Assembly: GCA_002432545.1 (NCBI GenBank)
Contig: DJFR01000040.1
Span: 20,270 to 72,345 of the forward strand
Length of the DNA stretch: 52,076 nucleotides
From: Flammeovirgaceae bacterium UBA5867
GTDB taxonomy: Bacteria; Bacteroidota; Bacteroidia; Cytophagales; Cyclobacteriaceae
Reading direction: 5' to 3'
Within the stretch, counting starts at the first letter, position 1, and every line of letters starts with the position of its first letter. Both the position numbers and the translations under genes were made by a program. Under the pieces are notes generated by a model that worked only from the letters and a program-made list of their open reading frames with translations, searched no databases and was not told the origin of the DNA. Positions 1,353 to 33,395 of this stretch are shown here, in pieces.

Positions 1353-4300
1353 TCATTCGATCGCTACATTTTTCATTTCATCACGTCCATATATAACAGG
1401 GAAGTACATCCATTCAGCCTTCGCAGGGTTGAGGTGGTATTTACCTTTATACCTCGGTAGCAGGTCAATGGTATAATGATAAGTTCCGGCACGAAGGCGC
1501 TCGCAATAAATCCGGGTTTCGTGCAGATCATACTCACGATGTACTTCACCGCCCGACCAGTTTTGGTTTTTGCTGTTGTATGAGCAACCAGCCGGTATAG
1601 GTATATTGATCATAACATACTCGGCATCCTTCTTAACCTCCAGTGTTACTTCGAGCTTTACCGGTTTACCGGCTTTTAGTTTTTTACAATCATGCTGCCA
1701 CGCAGTATGGATAATAAAGTCTTTCTCTACTTTTTGCGGAGCCGCATTCCATTTTTCCTGATAGGCAGTAATATATACCGGGTCGTTTCCGGTTTTGTGA
1801 ATAGATATACTTTTGATGTTCGCATACTCTTTTTCAAAAGGGAATTTCGTTACCTTTTCCTGCTCATTAATAACAATCGCAGATTTCTGTTCATGCTGTT
1901 TTTGTTTTAGCAGATGAGGTAATAATACTTCAATGATGCGCGATGACAGGTATGTATTCGACCAGCTTCGTTTGCGCTTCTCCAGAAAGTAATTCTGCAA
2001 CTTCAACAAGTTGGGATCATTTGGGTTTCGATGCTCCATCATTTGAAAAACAACCAGTGTGTTATCAGTATCATTGTTCCAGAGTGAATATTTACTTTCG
2101 CCCCAGTACCAGTTTCCTTTCAATGTTTCGTGTCGTTGCTTGTCAATGGTGCTCCAGTTTATATCCATCTTCTGCAGTTGCTTGAGACGTTGTATTAAAA
2201 GCAGCTCGTGCTGCGAATACTTCTTACTGTTTTTATTTAATGAATCAAGAATACCTTGCATGGCGAGCGGCTCATGTAATTCGGAGAGAAATATCCATGA
2301 ATTCAGCTGCAACTCAATGTGCGTAGCGGTGGTTGTATTACCCATCAGGTAATTTTTTACTCCCTGCATATCGAAGCGAACCGTATAGCCGAGTTCGTCT
2401 GCCCATAATAGAGCTTTCGCAATATGGATTGTTATCCAAACACTTCCCGCCCCGTTGGCACCCCACCAGCCCCAACTTCCATCGGCATGCTGATTGGCAA
2501 TTAATCGCTTGATTGCCTTTTCAACCTGTTTGTCGTGATTGAATTCTTCTTTCTTATATAAGCAAATTGCTTTTTCAGCAAGCAACGCTTTCAGTTTAGA
2601 GGCGAGCTGCTCGTTGCAATCATACGGATATACCTTTAGCACATTGATCTCATCACGCAACACATCCGTCACATCGGCCTGTGCATATATAGTAATTTTA
2701 CCGGGCGAATCGAAAGTATAGGTTAAGGTTGTATCGCGCTTAAGCGGAGCAAAGAACCCGGAAGTTTCCAACGAGCCGATTGGCAACACCGGTATTTTGC
2801 GAAATTCACCGTCTTCATATTTCTTATAGGTAAGGCTATATTTCACAGCAAGACTATCGGTTGTAGCACTGCTAAGATCGATCGTATCAATCGCTGTATT
2901 TTTAATAGCCAGATCATCTTGCCGTATAGTCTTGCTGCCAACTTCTATGGAGCGTTTTATTTTCAGGCTATCACCACCATAATTTGTAATCTTCCCGATC
3001 GCCCATGCACTATCGCCTTGTATCAGGAAATTTGGTAATGCTAACTGCGCAGCCAATGGCTTGTAGGATTGAATTTTGCTCTGCGTCTGGCCGGTACGTT
3101 TTTTAGAAGCCATTCCCAGCACATATATATTCCACCCCGTTATATCATCCGGAAAGGTTACATTGAAAGATGCTTCTCCATTATTATCAGTATATAGTTT
3201 CGGTTGCCAGAATGCGTAGTCGCGGAAATTTTTTCGCAGCGATGATCCGGGGGCGGCATCTCCTGTTAACGCGAGCTGTGGTGTATCGGGTAATTTAGTT
3301 TTTAGCAGTTGAGACTTTGTCATGCCGGCTTTGGTAGAAATAAGGATCACACCATTGGCAGCACGCGCACCATATATAGCAACGGCCTCTTCAGATTTGA
3401 GTGCAACCATCGATGTAATTCTGTCGGGATCAATGTCGTCCATCGTTTTCGGTACGCCATCGATCACTACCAGTGGAGTATTGCTGTTTTCTATGGTTGA
3501 TACGCCTCGCAGTTGTATGCTAATTGAATCCGCTACGCCCGGTATACCTCTTCGCCTCGCAATAACACCTGCTACCTTTCCGCTAAGTATTGATGTAACG
3601 GAACTGGTTAAATTGCTTCTTTTAGATTCAGCATAACCCACCACAACTACCTCGCTCAGCATCTGTGTATCTTCTTCAAGATTTACATTTACTTGGTTAG
3701 CTGTGGAGGTATTAAGCTCCTGTGTTGTGTAGCCGATGAACGAAACAACCAGTATACCATTAGCCGGTACATATATACGATAGTTGCCATTTGTATCAGT
3801 AGCCGTACCGTTGGCTGTTCCTTTCAGAATTATGTTTATCCCTGGCAACCCTTCGCCAGAACTGTCGGTAACCCTGCCTGTTACCCAGCGACCTCCCGTA
3901 AACGATGCATTATAGGTTGACTCGCGATAGTATAGCGAACGCAGGTTTTGCATTTCGTGCATCCGGTTCTGATCTATATATACCGATTCGTTGGACCATT
4001 TTTTTATTCGCTCCATTACTTCAATGCTGAATGTATCGGCAGGTAATATTTTTTCATCAGCAAGTGTATAGAAAGTTCTGCCGTACGGTTTTATAGCAAC
4101 GGGTTCTGGTTTACTATACTGCCCGTCTTTATAGAGCATAATTACCTGGTATTTACCCGGCAGTAGAGGCGCAAAACTTGATTGGCGGCCTGGGAAAATA
4201 TAGTATTCATCCGGAAGATCGAGATTCAAAATGAAGGTTGCGAAATGTTGAGGCAAGCCACCCCGATTATCCTCAATAACGAGCGTACCTGTCTTTTTGG

Positions 4301-7169
4301 ACACAGGGTAATTGGTTGGATATTTTCGAATGGTATATTCTGTCTGTGGCTCTATTTCATTTTGCTTCCAGTATTCGAGAATACGTTTTTCAGTTTGTAC
4401 CTGATCTCGCAGTGATGGACTAAAGGAACGGTAATACAACGGGCTCCGGAAAAGATACCGTATATCATAACTTTCGCGGTCTACAAGTTTAGGCTCAATG
4501 GTTACGACTCTTCCGGGTTTAAAATCAAAACCAGTGCTGAACTGTGGCGTATGATACAATATACTGCCTGGCATAAAAGGACCGACAAGTTTTTGTGCAT
4601 CGTTTCCCCAGTTAAATGGAACCATGGCGTGAAAATTATTTCCTTGTTCTAGGTAGGCGAGTCGCTGCGTCATGTCACGATTCAGTAAGAGAAAATGTGG
4701 CCAGAGTTTGTTTATTTCATAGTCGCTAAACTTTGATTCTTCTTCGGTTACTTCAACATCCTTCGGCAGGTCATTGAGATCGGCACTCAGTATAAGCTTT
4801 TTGCCTTTCTCTGCGATCACATGATTGATCTGTATCAATTTATCACGAAGCCTTATGGTAAGATTGTGTCGGCCAGGTGAAGTGCGAAAGGAGTATGGCT
4901 CCAGGCTTTTTACTTCGTGGTAATACTTCAGTTCGTTGTCGATGTATATATAGTATATCGGCTGCAAGCGACCGTCACTTACGATAAACGGGGCTATTTG
5001 TGTAATGCTGTCTTCGCCTGTTGTATAATGTTTGTAGATATTTTTTTCAGGATAAAGAAAATGATAGTACTCAATGCTGTCCAAACCAAGCCTGCTCTTC
5101 CAGAAATGATAGTGCAAATCATTCTCGAATGATCGTGCTTGCTCTTTTTCGCTGAACTCGTTGAAGATCTTTCGGCTCTTGAATCTTTCGAAGTCCGGCA
5201 CCTCGGTGGATGATCCTTCTTTAAATTTCTTTGTAATGCTATAGGCTGTGAGGTCAGCGTTTTTTACCGGTTTGTCAAAGGCGTCCTTCACATTTATTTT
5301 TATAGCAACCTGTTGCCCGGGATATACCGCTGCCGGGTGATCGACTTCTATGTGCAGCGGTTTTTTGGCGAATGGCAGATCATAATTCTGATTACGTGAT
5401 TGGCCTGCCCAGATATACTGAATGGCGAAATAGTATCGTGCGTGGGGCGATGCTTTTCGTTTCGCTATATAATCATGGCTATAGCCCTGGTCGATGATGG
5501 TATTGTTTTTAAAAAGCTGATAGTGAAACGGCAGCTTACGCGGATTTTGTGTTATGATGAGCAGACTGTCTTTTGTATGTTCTGCACTAACCTGTAGGTC
5601 ATCGCCAATGGATTCAAGACTTATTTTCTTGACAAAAGTATCATGCTGCAACAACACATAACTCTGTATGTGCTGATCAATTTTTTGCCGGTACGGGAGC
5701 AATACTTCTCTCTGCTCAACAATTTCACCAGCTTTGTTTAGCGACTGTATTTTGAATTTACCAGTGCCTTCAGCAGTAAAGATTACTGAATCGTTCTTAA
5801 CCTTAATATCACCAGCTGGTGTTATATAGGTATATTTCAGGTTCAGCTCTTTAGTATGGCGCTCGTTATCAGTGTTGGTAAAGATTGCCGTTACATTATA
5901 GTCGAGTACGGCTTTCGGAAATATTGAATCAGGGAGTGATATACTGGTTTCACCAATCGGATCCAGCTTCAGGTTATGGCACCACAGCGTATCCCTTACA
6001 AAAATTGTCGGTCGTGTAAAATCATTGACACTTGCTGATTTTACAATAAGCTGAACGCGAACATCGTATAGCGGAAGATCATTGGCATCGGTACCTTTCA
6101 AAAATATAGTTGCCGACTTGTGTGATGGTGCATGGTTGCTGCGAATGGTAAATGTATTCTGCTGAAGTTCATATTGTTCATAACGAAAAGTAGCAGAAGG
6201 ATAGTCATGATCTCTTTTGTCCTGCAAGAGGATGTGGTAGCTCTTATCAAGTTTTAATTGCAAGCTATCGTGCAATACAAATTCATAGATATAGGCACCC
6301 GGTCTGTAAGGTGCAACTTCAGCCAGGGTCTTGGCTGGTACGTTACTACTATAATATTGATTAAGTCTAAAGGTGATTTTGTGCTTTGCCGGTTTACCTT
6401 TTGCGGTAACAATATAGGCCTTCAGTTTTACCGTGTCGCCCGGTTTATACTTTGGTTTGTTCAGAACAACGTAACCGCTATAGGGCTCTGTGTTAAAGAT
6501 TTTTCTTACTCTATAATATATACCTGGCGGCCGAATGCGCGTGTAATCGAACAAACTTCGTACAGATCGTGCCATGTAAAAGAATGGTGACGCAATATGA
6601 TTAAGGGGAAATGTTCCCAGTGCTCTTCGCGTTACACGTTTCGGCAAGTTGTTGTTGTACTTTCGCTGAATGTCGAAGAATGAGACATGGCCCTGGTATA
6701 AAACTTTGATCCAGCCTTGCCGGTTTGTTGTGGCGATGCGGTACGCATTGTTCTTTTTAGAGAACGGTATATTTCTGATGCCAATCCTTGGCCTAAGGGT
6801 GTTGACCAGTTTTCCGTTTACATCGTGAAATGATAACAGCAAGTCGCGGTGATTGTTAAGAATCACCATGTCCAGGTTATTTACCGATTCCATTTCTGCA
6901 TCCAGTGTTGCACCCCGGGATTTAATATAGAGGTAATGCCCAGTGGCAAGTTTCTTCCTGTAAACAGAATCCGATGGGTATAAATCTACCAATGTGTGAA
7001 AGAGACTATCGGAGAGAGGGCTATAACTTTTAGTATATAGCTTCTCAGCCTCTTTGTTGGTGATCTTGTAAATGAAAGTATAGTAACTCGATGTTCGCGA
7101 CTCAACCAGGTTTTGAGCGGAAGCATTTATACATACGAGTAACAGGCACGCGAGTAAAAATTTATTCAT
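1353..7169 (-). CDS. Alpha-2-macroglobulin-like thioester protein with inserted carboxypeptidase-regulatory-like and TonB plug domains
   Basis: Start placed at ATG 7169 (signal peptide MNKFLLACLLLVCINASAQ). MG2 motif NKPKYKPGDTVKL; A2M motif RKNFRDYAFWQP...FPDDITGW; thioester motif YPYDCNEQ (CNEQ at 2607-2618); TED-like QHADGSWGWW; C-terminal YVMINIPIPAG. SusC-like VTGRVTD...SFIGY...EVVVVGY and plug PLVVIDG...AIYGARAANGVILISTK. Confidence 0.85.
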   Translation of the reverse strand: MNKFLLACLLLVCINASAQNLVESRTSSYYTFIYKITNKEAEKLYTKSYSPLSDSLFHTLVDLYPSDSVYRKKLATGHYLYIKSRGATLDAEMESVNNLDMVILNNHRDLLLSFHDVNGKLVNTLRPRIGIRNIPFSKKNNAYRIATTNRQGWIKVLYQGHVSFFDIQRKYNNNLPKRVTRRALGTFPLNHIASPFFYMARSVRSLFDYTRIRPPGIYYRVRKIFNTEPYSGYVVLNKPKYKPGDTVKLKAYIVTAKGKPAKHKITFRLNQYYSSNVPAKTLAEVAPYRPGAYIYEFVLHDSLQLKLDKSYHILLQDKRDHDYPSATFRYEQYELQQNTFTIRSNHAPSHKSATIFLKGTDANDLPLYDVRVQLIVKSASVNDFTRPTIFVRDTLWCHNLKLDPIGETSISLPDSIFPKAVLDYNVTAIFTNTDNERHTKELNLKYTYITPAGDIKVKNDSVIFTAEGTGKFKIQSLNKAGEIVEQREVLLPYRQKIDQHIQSYVLLQHDTFVKKISLESIGDDLQVSAEHTKDSLLIITQNPRKLPFHYQLFKNNTIIDQGYSHDYIAKRKASPHARYYFAIQYIWAGQSRNQNYDLPFAKKPLHIEVDHPAAVYPGQQVAIKINVKDAFDKPVKNADLTAYSITKKFKEGSSTEVPDFERFKSRKIFNEFSEKEQARSFENDLHYHFWKSRLGLDSIEYYHFLYPEKNIYKHYTTGEDSITQIAPFIVSDGRLQPIYYIYIDNELKYYHEVKSLEPYSFRTSPGRHNLTIRLRDKLIQINHVIAEKGKKLILSADLNDLPKDVEVTEEESKFSDYEINKLWPHFLLLNRDMTQRLAYLEQGNNFHAMVPFNWGNDAQKLVGPFMPGSILYHTPQFSTGFDFKPGRVVTIEPKLVDRESYDIRYLFRSPLYYRSFSPSLRDQVQTEKRILEYWKQNEIEPQTEYTIRKYPTNYPVSKKTGTLVIEDNRGGLPQHFATFILNLDLPDEYYIFPGRQSSFAPLLPGKYQVIMLYKDGQYSKPEPVAIKPYGRTFYTLADEKILPADTFSIEVMERIKKWSNESVYIDQNRMHEMQNLRSLYYRESTYNASFTGGRWVTGRVTDSSGEGLPGINIILKGTANGTATDTNGNYRIYVPANGILVVSFIGYTTQELNTSTANQVNVNLEEDTQMLSEVVVVGYAESKRSNLTSSVTSILSGKVAGVIARRRGIPGVADSISIQLRGVSTIENSNTPLVVIDGVPKTMDDIDPDRITSMVALKSEEAVAIYGARAANGVILISTKAGMTKSQLLKTKLPDTPQLALTGDAAPGSSLRKNFRDYAFWQPKLYTDNNGEASFNVTFPDDITGWNIYVLGMASKKRTGQTQSKIQSYKPLAAQLALPNFLIQGDSAWAIGKITNYGGDSLKIKRSIEVGSKTIRQDDLAIKNTAIDTIDLSSATTDSLAVKYSLTYKKYEDGEFRKIPVLPIGSLETSGFFAPLKRDTTLTYTFDSPGKITIYAQADVTDVLRDEINVLKVYPYDCNEQLASKLKALLAEKAICLYKKEEFNHDKQVEKAIKRLIANQHADGSWGWWGANGAGSVWITIHIAKALLWADELGYTVRFDMQGVKNYLMGNTTTATHIELQLNSWIFLSELHEPLAMQGILDSLNKNSKKYSQHELLLIQRLKQLQKMDINWSTIDKQRHETLKGNWYWGESKYSLWNNDTDNTLVVFQMMEHRNPNDPNLLKLQNYFLEKRKRSWSNTYLSSRIIEVLLPHLLKQKQHEQKSAIVINEQEKVTKFPFEKEYANIKSISIHKTGNDPVYITAYQEKWNAAPQKVEKDFIIHTAWQHDCKKLKAGKPVKLEVTLEVKKDAEYVMINIPIPAGCSYNSKNQNWSGGEVHREYDLHETRIYCERLRAGTYHYTIDLLPRYKGKYHLNPAKAEWMYFPVIYGRDEMKNVAIE

Positions 7170-8082
7170 ATAGGTTCTGGTAAGAAGCAGCTCCTTGCAG
7201 CCCGCCTGTATGCAGGGCAAGTATCGTGGAGCCTCGCTTAAAAAAGCCTTTCTTTACCTCTTCCAACACCGCCCACATCAACTTGCCCGTATATACAGGG
7301 TCGAGCGGAAGGTTATGCTGCTGGTACATCTCACGTATAAAATTTTTCAGCACATCCGGTACCTTGGCATAGCCTCCGTGATGATAAGATGTAAGCACCT
7401 GCCATTTTCCATAAACCGGGGAAGAAATTTTTTTTTCTGCTGCAGAAGTTTTTAACAGGTTGGTTATTTCCTGTGTCAGAAAATCTCCTTTCAACACACT
7501 TATACCTACAACTTCTCTTTTGCCTGCAAACCCTTCAAGTATACCAGCCATTGTTCCGCCAGTACCACTTGCCAGGCAGAGGTAATCGAAGTCAAGGTTT
7601 AATAATGTCTCGGCAAATTCTGAACAACCTTTTAGTGCAAGCGAATTTGTGCCGCCTTCGGGTATACTATAAAAATCACCGAACGCACTATGAAGGTGCC
7701 GAATATAGTCTGCTTCATTTTTTTTTCTATAGTCTTCACGTGAAACATAGTGCAGCTCCATGCCATGTTCAGTTGCAAAACGCAACGTAGGGTTTAAGGG
7801 CAAAACTTCTTCACCGCGTATTATACCTATACTTTTAAAATTGCATTCCTCTGCAGCTGCCGCTACAGCATAGATGTGATTGGAGTATGCTCCGCCAAAT
7901 GTGAGCAAAGTTTTCTTGTTAAGTCTTCGTGCTTCCTCCAGGTTGTATTTCAACTTCCACCATTTGTTGCCGGAGATAAACGGATGATTGAGATCTTCAC
8001 GTTTAACCAACAATCGAACGCCCGCTTTTTCCAAAACAGCATGATGAAATTCCTGAACCGGAGTAGACTCGTAGTGTAGCAA
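7162..8082 (-). CDS. ACC deaminase/D-cysteine desulfhydrase family PLP enzyme
   Basis: TTG start; motifs KREDL, SGNKWWKL (PLP lysine), TFGGAYSNH, PEGG, LDPVYTGK, HTGG. Confidence 0.9.
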   Translation of the reverse strand: MLHYESTPVQEFHHAVLEKAGVRLLVKREDLNHPFISGNKWWKLKYNLEEARRLNKKTLLTFGGAYSNHIYAVAAAAEECNFKSIGIIRGEEVLPLNPTLRFATEHGMELHYVSREDYRKKNEADYIRHLHSAFGDFYSIPEGGTNSLALKGCSEFAETLLNLDFDYLCLASGTGGTMAGILEGFAGKREVVGISVLKGDFLTQEITNLLKTSAAEKKISSPVYGKWQVLTSYHHGGYAKVPDVLKNFIREMYQQHNLPLDPVYTGKLMWAVLEEVKKGFFKRGSTILALHTGGLQGAASYQNLYE

Positions 8083-8132
8083 AATTGAAGTTTTTGAGGG
8101 CTCAAAATACTTTAAAATTCAAATTTTAAATA

Positions 8133-8169
8133 ACTAATAATTTTAGTGAATACATCTAAAATTATTAGT
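8133..8169. promoter_or_regulatory. Two tandem CTAA-N5-TTAG palindromic boxes (probable Bacteroidota SOS operator)
   Basis: CTAA-TAATT-TTAG at 8134-8146 and CTAA-AATTA-TTAG at 8156-8168. Together they form a perfect 14-bp inverted repeat with a 9-bp spacer, upstream of a SplB-like radical SAM gene. Confidence 0.65.
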
Positions 8170-8201
8170 AACTATGTGTAGCGTTTAGTGAAGGAGTATT
8201 T

Positions 8202-9254
8202 ATGGAAGAGGAATATTTTAAGGGCAGAGGGGCGCAAATAAAAACAGCGAATAAATTTCTAAAGGCACAGTATGTTACTGACCATGTTGAAGGACTTGAT
8301 GAACCGTTGTTTTCAGCACCCACCACACAAATTTTTTATGAGACACCCAAGAAGATTGTTAATAAAGTAACGAGCCCGGATCTTCGGATGATGTACTCCA
8401 CCAATCCGTACCAGGGTTGCGAGCATGGATGTATATATTGTTATGCACGCAACTCGCACGAGTACTGGGGCTTTAATGCCGGCCTTGATTTTGAGAGCAA
8501 GATCATTGTGAAAAAAGACGCACCGAAGCTGTTGGAGAAATTTATACTTCACCCGGATTGGCAGCCGGTGCCTATATCGGTTTCCGGTAATACGGATTGT
8601 TATCAACCGCTTGAGCGTAAATTTGAGATCACGCGAAACATGCTGAAAGTGTTTGCAAGATATAGACATCCCGTTGGTATGATTACCAAAAACAGTCTGG
8701 TGTTGCGCGATATAGATTTACTCAAAGATCTGGCGCAGGATAATTTAGTGCATGTATATATCTCCATCACCACGCTGGATGAAGACTTGCGCAGGGCGAT
8801 GGAACCTCGCACAGCCAGCGCAGTAAAGCGACTAAAAACTGTAGAGGAATTATCGAAAGCCGGAGTGCCGGTGGGCATTATGAACGCACCAATTATACCC
8901 GGACTCAATCATCACGAAATTCCACAAATATTAAAAGCCGCGAGTGATCATGGGGCATTGGGAGCAGGCATGACCGTTGTTCGTTTGAATGGCTCTATCG
9001 GAAAAATTTTTGAAGACTGGCTGCGAAAGAATTTCCCGGATCGCTTTGATAAGGTATGGCACCAGATCTGCTCGCTGCACGGTGGCAACGTAAACGACTC
9101 CGAGTTTGGAAGACGCATGAGCGGTGAAGGTAATTTTGCAGAAATTATACATCAGCTCTTCACGATATCCAAAAAGAAATATTTTGGTAACAAAACATTG
9201 CCGGCTATCGATCTCACCAAATTCAGGAAGGGCGGAAACCTCAGCCTGTTTTAG
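8202..9254 (+). CDS. Radical SAM protein, PA0069/Rv2578c (SplB-like) family
   Basis: NPYQGCEHGCIYCYAR (CxxxCxxC), GLDFESKIIVK, NTDCYQP, MEPRTAS; preceded by AAGGAG. Confidence 0.9.
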   Translation: MEEEYFKGRGAQIKTANKFLKAQYVTDHVEGLDEPLFSAPTTQIFYETPKKIVNKVTSPDLRMMYSTNPYQGCEHGCIYCYARNSHEYWGFNAGLDFESKIIVKKDAPKLLEKFILHPDWQPVPISVSGNTDCYQPLERKFEITRNMLKVFARYRHPVGMITKNSLVLRDIDLLKDLAQDNLVHVYISITTLDEDLRRAMEPRTASAVKRLKTVEELSKAGVPVGIMNAPIIPGLNHHEIPQILKAASDHGALGAGMTVVRLNGSIGKIFEDWLRKNFPDRFDKVWHQICSLHGGNVNDSEFGRRMSGEGNFAEIIHQLFTISKKKYFGNKTLPAIDLTKFRKGGNLSLF

Positions 9255-32150: not shown

Positions 32151-32342
32151 ATAGTTATTGTTTAATTTTTTCTGCTGGTAATTGACGGCTTTCTGTAACA
32201 GTCAATCAGAAAATAAATCTTCCGTAAACAGTCATCCACAAATTTTGCGCAAAGCTAAAAATGTAAATTCTCAGAAGAATTAAATTCTGAATTTTAAGTT
32301 ACCATTAAATGACATTTAAACAAAAATGGAATATGTAGTGCA

Positions 32343-33395
32343 TCATATAAGCTGGTGGTCTTCCAAAAAACGACTTATAAGCACAGGCTTGGGTAACTCC
32401 GTTATTTTTTTTGTTGAATAATATTTCAGATTTTCTGATTCACCTGCCAATGCATCTCCTTTTATAATAATGAAGGTTGCGTGAATGATCTGATGACTGA
32501 GTACATGTTTATATTTTTTGGAAACCACCTGTGCATTCTTCACAAATTTTTTTAGCCATGCATCTTCAGCCATTACCTTCAATGCATTTTGCGTTCGTGT
32601 TTTTTCTACGAGATGAAAATCGTACAGGCCATGCCATATATCTTTTTCTTCACGTTTTTTAAGCAGCATCGATTTGCCCTTCTGAAAAACAAAATAATAG
32701 AAGTAGCGGGCACGTGCTGTCTTCGCCTTTATTTTGACAGGAAGTTGAGCCTGTAAATTTTTTTGTGATGCAAAGCACGATGGTTGAAATATACACTGCT
32801 CGCAAACCGGACTAACCGGTGTGCAGTATAGCGCACCAAATTCCATCACTGCCTGATTATGTATATCCGGATTTTTTGGTGTGATGAGTTCGTTGGCAAT
32901 CTGCGTAAAATGTTTTTTGCCCTCCGGACTGTTAATTTCTTTTTCAATTCCGAAGATGCGTGCGAGTACGCGAAAAACATTTCCATCAACCACCGCTACT
33001 TTTTCCTGGTAAGCAATGGAGGCGATGGCAGCCGCAGTATAGTCGCCGATGCCGGGAAGTTTTTTTAATTCTTCAAATGTATCCGGAAAGGCTCCTTTAT
33101 ATTTTGTTACAACTTCTTTGGCGCACTTGTGCAGGTTTCGCGCACGCGTGTAATAGCCGAGTCCCTGCCAAAGCCGGAGCACATCCTGCTCGGAAGCGGA
33201 GGCCAGCGCCTGCACGGTCGGAAATTTTTCAACAAACTTTAAATAGTAAGGTAATCCCTGAATTACCCGCGTTTGCTGCAGGATAATTTCGGATAACCAT
33301 ATTTTATATGGATCGCGGGTGCTTCGCCAGGGCAGGTCACGTTTGTTAACTGCATACCATTCAACGACTTTATCAGAGAAATATCGCTTGTCCAT
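32343..33395 (-). CDS. mutY: A/G-specific adenine glycosylase
   Basis: WLSEIILQQT, WQGLGYYTRARN, HhH LPGIGDYTA, VVDGNVFRV, Fe-S motif CTPVSPVCEQCIFQPSC. Confidence 0.96.
   Translation of the reverse strand: MDKRYFSDKVVEWYAVNKRDLPWRSTRDPYKIWLSEIILQQTRVIQGLPYYLKFVEKFPTVQALASASEQDVLRLWQGLGYYTRARNLHKCAKEVVTKYKGAFPDTFEELKKLPGIGDYTAAAIASIAYQEKVAVVDGNVFRVLARIFGIEKEINSPEGKKHFTQIANELITPKNPDIHNQAVMEFGALYCTPVSPVCEQCIFQPSCFASQKNLQAQLPVKIKAKTARARYFYYFVFQKGKSMLLKKREEKDIWHGLYDFHLVEKTRTQNALKVMAEDAWLKKFVKNAQVVSKKYKHVLSHQIIHATFIIIKGDALAGESENLKYYSTKKITELPKPVLISRFLEDHQLI

Follow-up and report, generated by a model that had tools for sequence, protein, structure and literature searches.

What do two short palindromes do that lie side by side between a radical SAM (rSAM) gene and a divergent gene for a PLP-dependent enzyme in an uncultured Ohtaekwangia? 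The stretch of DNA that we analysed, called the window below, is 52 kb long and corresponds to C47:20270-72345 of a 6.8-Mb draft genome of this genus (280 contigs, 90.8% complete). The two genes are separated by a divergent gap of 119 bp (8083-8201), which is bounded by a TTG start codon at 8082 on the minus strand and an ATG at 8202 on the plus strand. The letters at 8133-8169 read ACTAATAATTTTAG-TGAATACAT-CTAAAATTATTAGT and contain two perfect copies of the dyad CTAA-N5-TTAG. The start-to-start distance from box 1 to box 2 is 22 bp, and the boxes begin 68 nt (box 1) and 46 nt (box 2) upstream of the ATG of the rSAM gene. The left part, ACTAATAATTTTAG (8133-8146), and the right part, CTAAAATTATTAGT (8156-8169), match each other exactly as reverse complements, over 14 bp and no further. 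An earlier note on this DNA had described two perfect palindromes 22 bp apart, a perfect 14-bp inverted repeat and a divergent intergenic region of 119 bp; we confirmed all three. The coordinates of these and other features are collected in Table 1.

Table 1. Features of the window (positions without prefix) and of the rest of the genome (positions or contigs with prefix C)
Feature	Position	Strand	Remark
Box 1, distal (probable) SOS box CTAATAATTTTAG	8134-8146	.	Perfect CTAA-N5-TTAG palindrome
Box 2, promoter-proximal (probable) SOS box CTAAAATTATTAG	8156-8168	.	Perfect CTAA-N5-TTAG palindrome
Putative -7 element TAACTATG of the rSAM gene	8169-8176	+	One mismatch to TAnnTTTG; abuts box 2
CAAAATA block (TATTTTG on the minus strand), possible leftward -7-like element	8103-8109	-	Seen by eye in most congeners
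PA0069-family radical SAM gene (COG1533, 'SplB-like')	8202-9254	+	350 aa; Pfam Radical_SAM 3.6e-20; NF033668
PLP-dependent enzyme gene (ACC deaminase / D-cysteine desulfhydrase family)	7162-8082	-	Divergent neighbour, same intergenic region
Alpha-2-macroglobulin-like protein gene	1353-7220	-	1955 aa (A2M, MG2, bMG10); after the PLP-enzyme gene
Perfect pair	C47		Before the PA0069 rSAM gene of the window
Perfect pair	C44		Before imuA-imuB-dnaE2
Perfect pair	C28		Before the TIGR03916 radical SAM / TIGR03915 (rSAM-UDG) operon
Perfect pairs	C35, C77, C224 (contig end)		Three loci of one protein family without known function
recA	C51:13521-14621		Two boxes with one mismatch each
Small gene on C35	C35:2140-2478		112 aa; 2061-2478 including the site
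Small gene on C77	C77:32302-32988		228 aa, apparently two domain copies; 32302-33037 including the site
Duplicate of the C35 site	C224:9902-9946
HTH_3 protein gene on C7	C7:16994-17680	-	228 aa

The number of boxes is in itself unremarkable. CTAATAATTTTAG and CTAAAATTATTAG are the only perfect matches to CTAA-N5-TTAG in the window, and two matches against 1.03 expected is not significant (at least two were present in 27 of 100 shuffles). Copies with one mismatch were below chance (17 versus 25.9 expected); none of these was paired and none preceded a repair gene. This agrees with the earlier note, in which no box had been seen at the other repair genes of the window. The feature that departs from chance is the pairing of the boxes, not their count.

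The motif itself has a published history. Sanchez-Osuna et al. (2021, Nucleic Acids Res, PMC8565304) identified CTAA-N5-TTAG in front of genes for error-prone polymerases in Bacteroidetes and reported, using EMSA, that it is bound by an S24 repressor with a CI-like helix-turn-helix (HTH), which was named non-canonical LexA. In the same work, splB (COG1533) is a core member of the regulon of this repressor. The earlier note had named both the motif of the CI-like S24 LexA proteins of Bacteroidetes and SplB-like genes as SOS targets, and both statements proved accurate. The locus in the window shares with the published boxes the identical dyad, the spacer length and the target family (splB/COG1533, PA0069), and the companions are also the same (recA, imuA-imuB-dnaE2 and the COG4277-COG1573 rSAM-UDG genes); it differs in its host, Ohtaekwangia being absent from the text of PMC8565304 and from the part of its supplementary files covered here. 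Supplementary file 21 of that paper gives three double sites for Chryseolinea soli KIS68-18, spaced 22 bp at a 'PA0069 family radical SAM protein', 33 bp at DNA polymerase IV and 21 bp at ImuA. Since the orthologous double operator is listed there, a precedent from the sister genus is on record: motif, target family and two-box layout are already published, and the finding is correct and ordinary. The pairing of boxes by exact helical turns is not discussed in the main text of 2021, where a term search found no mention of paired sites or of cooperativity. A literature search on the motif returned PMC8565304 as the sole match.

We then asked how the boxes are distributed over the genome to which the window belongs. 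Perfect boxes are scarce, with 44 copies against approximately 160 expected from base composition. Nevertheless, 12 of the 44 form six pairs with spacings of 21, 22 or 32 bp, and all six pairs are intergenic. The two imperfect boxes at recA are 33 bp apart. With this motif, recA, imuA-imuB-dnaE2 and the rSAM-UDG operon, all with paired boxes, represent the canonical SOS set. The genome-wide scan proposed in the earlier note had been expected to return repair genes as well as the gene of the repressor itself. The first part of this expectation was borne out, by the pairs at imuA-imuB-dnaE2 and the rSAM-UDG operon and by the recA pair, each box of which has one mismatch; as to the second part, the repressor gene is missing from the assembly, and its counterparts in congeners do have paired boxes.

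The small genes on C35 and C77 each lie directly behind a perfect pair with a spacing of 32 bp, and their products are homologous (31% identity, E 2e-8). The sequence between the two boxes of the C35-type site recurs almost unchanged in at least six congeners, and that of the C77-type site in at least one. The proteins of this family had no match in Pfam, NCBIfam or PHROG. Judged by their upstream sites, they are candidate new members of the SOS regulon. Two other arrangements were rejected as operators. A pair on C53 with one mismatch per box lies inside an ORF. The pair at C111:41831-41904, likewise with one mismatch per box, belongs to a set of three AAA(A/T)GTTAGC-type units approximately 30 bp apart, located just downstream of ssb; one unit is a perfect CTAA-N5-TTAG, and the arrangement resembles a short repeat rather than an operator.

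Which protein would bind the boxes? A search of the assembly with PF00717 gave 0 matches to the S24 domain, and tblastn of three congener regulators against the genome yielded matches to the HTH domain only (on C7 and C68). A match to PF00717 was obtained in 17 of the 18 congeners searched, and the surrounding ORF was 261-278 aa long in 16. Five of the congener regulators were read out; they have 259-267 aa and consist of HTH_3 and Peptidase_S24. Upstream of the regulator gene, paired CTAA-N5-TTAG motifs 32-33 bp apart were present in five of the five congener loci examined. The flank of lexA in the nearest relative (G005) matches contig C178 with 90% identity as far as position 4699 out of 4702, at the contig end, so that the assembly breaks where lexA would follow. 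At this end of the 4.7-kb contig (C178:4046-4702), synteny stops beside short repeats that are common to many contigs. On C118, which matches the neighbour of the lexA gene of L007, no lexA-like gene follows. Twelve perfect boxes are unlikely to persist without a repressor, and the missing gene seems to reflect an assembly gap.

The protein encoded on C7 has an HTH_3 domain and a C-terminal 'NRSM' that is reminiscent of the 'GDSM' of S24 proteins, and it may be a degenerate CI/LexA-like regulator. It had no Pfam S24 match, and CTAA-N5-TTAG does not occur upstream of its gene. We rejected it as the cognate repressor, given a tail without recognised domain and the lack of an upstream box.

To follow the boxes through related genomes, we used 78 orthologous rSAM loci from Ohtaekwangia, Chryseolinea, Dawidia, Chryseosolibacter, Pedobacter and others. 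In the 250 bp before the gene, 67 of the 78 loci carry one or more perfect boxes and 35 carry two. The commonest spacing was 21-22 bp, and 32 of 47 spacings between adjacent sites fell between 18 and 23 bp. In Pedobacter, one box is present, at about -43. Nor is the position with respect to the promoter constant, since the boxes of some Chryseolinea loci are no more than 20 nt away from the inferred start codon. When 10 congener loci from across the genus were aligned, the only invariant upstream columns were those of the CTAA and TTAG arms, in box 1 as well as in box 2, together with a near-invariant TAAYTATG after box 2; the spacers are variable and the flanks have diverged.

The spacing of the pairs was surveyed in 20 genomes of the genus (G000-G018 and G031). 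The 75 perfect pairs listed, from 19 of the 20 genomes, fell into two classes, 31 pairs being spaced by 20-24 bp and 44 pairs by 31-34 bp, and no other spacing was found among them even though 14-43 bp was allowed. A control pattern, the motif read backwards, gave no pair in 19 of the 20 genomes and one pair in G002. The two classes correspond to two or three turns of the helix. At the rSAM loci, the outer sides of the pair prefer CTAAT in box 1 and ATTAG in box 2, which gives the composite site a two-fold symmetry. Of 28 orthologous pairs, only 5 had fully complementary spacers. On this comparison of sequences, the window's perfect inverted repeat of 14 bp is an example of a tendency to symmetry and is not itself conserved.

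In Bacteroidetes, the consensus of the -7 promoter element is TAnnTTTG. The octamer TAACTATG is the putative -7 element of the rSAM gene, and the same placement recurs: a TAnnTTTG-like element abuts or overlaps the proximal box at imuA (TAACTTTG), at the rSAM-UDG operon (TAGTTTTG) and at recA. Reading by eye, we found TAnnTTTG between the two boxes at the small gene on C77 and a version with one mismatch at that on C35. A clear -33 TTTG was not seen under box 1.

From the paired sites at the SOS set, their conservation at orthologous genes and their position next to a putative -7 element, we consider it highly probable that the boxes are a composite operator of the non-canonical LexA of Bacteroidetes at the rSAM promoter. 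The repressor would consist of an HTH_3 (CI-like) DNA-binding domain and a self-cleaving S24 domain, and one dimer would occupy each 13-bp palindrome. With box 2 directly next to the -7 element and box 1 over the site where the -33 is expected, bound repressor would occlude RNA polymerase. Since the boxes are two helical turns apart, the dimers probably sit on the same face of the DNA and could help each other to bind. Upon DNA damage, self-cleavage of the repressor, stimulated by RecA, would free the rSAM promoter. The strict spacing of pairs by two or three turns across the genus favours cooperative repression. A more general proposal, to which we give an even chance, is that the LexA of Ohtaekwangia and Chryseolinea acts as a cooperative pair of dimers in the manner of lambda CI, at boxes that are exactly two or three turns apart and bracket the -7 and -33 elements, on a symmetric composite operator with the stronger half-sites outside (CTAAT...ATTAG), and that the C35/C77 family represents new SOS genes.

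The comparison with CI of phage lambda at OR1-OR2 and OL1-OL2 has two sides. Both repressors would combine an all-helical HTH domain at the N terminus with an S24 domain at the C terminus, and in both cases a promoter is covered by two neighbouring palindromes at a distance of about two helical turns. The lambda operator arrangement supports pairwise cooperative binding. The lambda operators are 17 bp long, whereas the palindrome here is the 13-bp CTAA-N5-TTAG; lambda CI governs the switch between lysis and lysogeny, whereas chromosomal repair genes would be controlled here. The phased spacing of the boxes is in keeping with a cooperative mode of the lambda kind, which is a proposal for the protein of Bacteroidetes. 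The canonical LexA box of Escherichia coli is CTGT-N8-ACAG, and two or three boxes are present at some promoters, such as those of lexA and recN. Canonical LexA likewise uses a palindromic operator over the core promoter of damage-inducible genes and is inactivated by RecA-stimulated self-cleavage; it differs in motif and in fold, having a winged HTH (PF01726) where the repressor of Bacteroidetes has HTH_3 (PF01381).

Do the boxes control the leftward genes as well? A bidirectional operator would also repress the PLP-enzyme and A2M genes and make them damage-inducible, as had been suggested in the earlier note for the deaminase/A2M operon. The boxes are 52-86 bp from the TTG at 8082, inside the region shared by both genes, and the divergent PLP-enzyme/rSAM adjacency is kept at about 42 loci within the Ohtaekwangia/Chryseolinea clade. 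By eye, the recurring CAAAATA block would set a leftward -33 beside box 1 (expected near 8128-8135); in the alignment of 10 congeners, the block is out of register. When PLP-enzyme orthologues of Cytophagales that are not beside the rSAM gene were inspected, 28 of 28 lacked a perfect box within 250 bp upstream, and the same was true of two loci in which the PLP-enzyme gene is located elsewhere in the rSAM neighbourhood. Since orthologues away from the rSAM gene are boxless, the boxes belong to the rSAM gene, and it is from its start that their distance is roughly fixed, not from the PLP-enzyme gene. In addition, COG2515 is absent from the portion of the supplementary files of PMC8565304 considered here. 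The suggestion of a damage-inducible deaminase/A2M operon thus finds no support in the separate orthologues, and we regard operation in both directions, or an incidental effect of the boxes on the leftward promoter in this clade, as unlikely.

The missing repressor leaves room for another reading, namely that the boxes bind a regulator unrelated to DNA damage, such as the HTH_3 protein with the 'NRSM' tail, which is present in the assembly, and that their likeness to SOS boxes is coincidental. This would have to account for the paired motif before recA, imuA-imuB-dnaE2 and the rSAM-UDG operon, which is the classical SOS set. The congeners do possess the canonical regulator, whose gene is itself preceded by the motif; by synteny, the assembly is interrupted at the lexA locus, and the C7 gene carries no box. 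We therefore judge a regulator of this kind very improbable. Still less credible is that the palindromes arose by chance in AT-rich intergenic DNA or that the 14-bp repeat forms a hairpin (a terminator or cruciform), even though the count in the window is not significant and the inverted repeat is perfect. The motif is under-represented in the genome and yet paired six times, the control pattern is almost never paired, and between genera it is the arms that stay the same and the spacers that change. The stem consists almost entirely of A and T, lacks a T-run and is located upstream of both genes. A 14-bp hairpin under selection was rejected, since so few of the orthologous pairs have complementary spacers.

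With the composite LexA operator as the preferred reading, the nature of its target becomes of interest. The rSAM protein scored 488.8 bits against NF033668 (cut-off 360, 7.9e-147), residues 7-343 aligning with positions 1-337 of the 348 of the model. Against TIGR04070, the model of true spore photoproduct lyase, it scored 20.1 bits, far under the cut-off of 400. The protein resembles spore photoproduct lyase SplB in being a radical SAM enzyme with the COG1533 label 'SplB / DNA repair photolyase', and it differs in belonging to the PA0069 family instead. 'SplB-like' is thus a COG1533 label for the rSAM protein of the window, and the activity of the PA0069 family is only putative. The best matches came from Ohtaekwangia, with 96% identity of the rSAM protein to that of O. 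kribbensis. A literature search for PA0069 together with 'radical SAM' gave no match.

The PA0069 rSAM gene joins a small SOS regulon that comprises recA, imuA-imuB-dnaE2 and the rSAM-UDG operon, and this placement adds weight to the putative role of the enzyme family in the repair of DNA damage. It also provides an uncultured Ohtaekwangia genome with a regulatory annotation that we regard as reliable. For the SOS response of Bacteroidetes, the phased two-box layout and the box-associated protein family without known function are modest leads, and the repressor gene missing at a contig break is a further one.

Some minor observations concern the surroundings of the boxes. The A2M-like protein contains a CarboxypepD_reg domain in an insert that resembles the N-terminal region of SusC (residues 1113-1302), and the longest ORF of its gene shares 59 bp with the PLP-enzyme gene upstream of it. 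Elsewhere in the genome, a single perfect box at C44:16054 (within C44:16041-16090) lies 12 bp upstream of a gene that, by eye, is MarR-like and adjoins genes resembling a PEP-utilising (rifampin-phosphotransferase-like) enzyme. This box is part of a different palindrome, ATCTTAGTTACTAAGAT, which is likely the MarR-like regulator's own operator.
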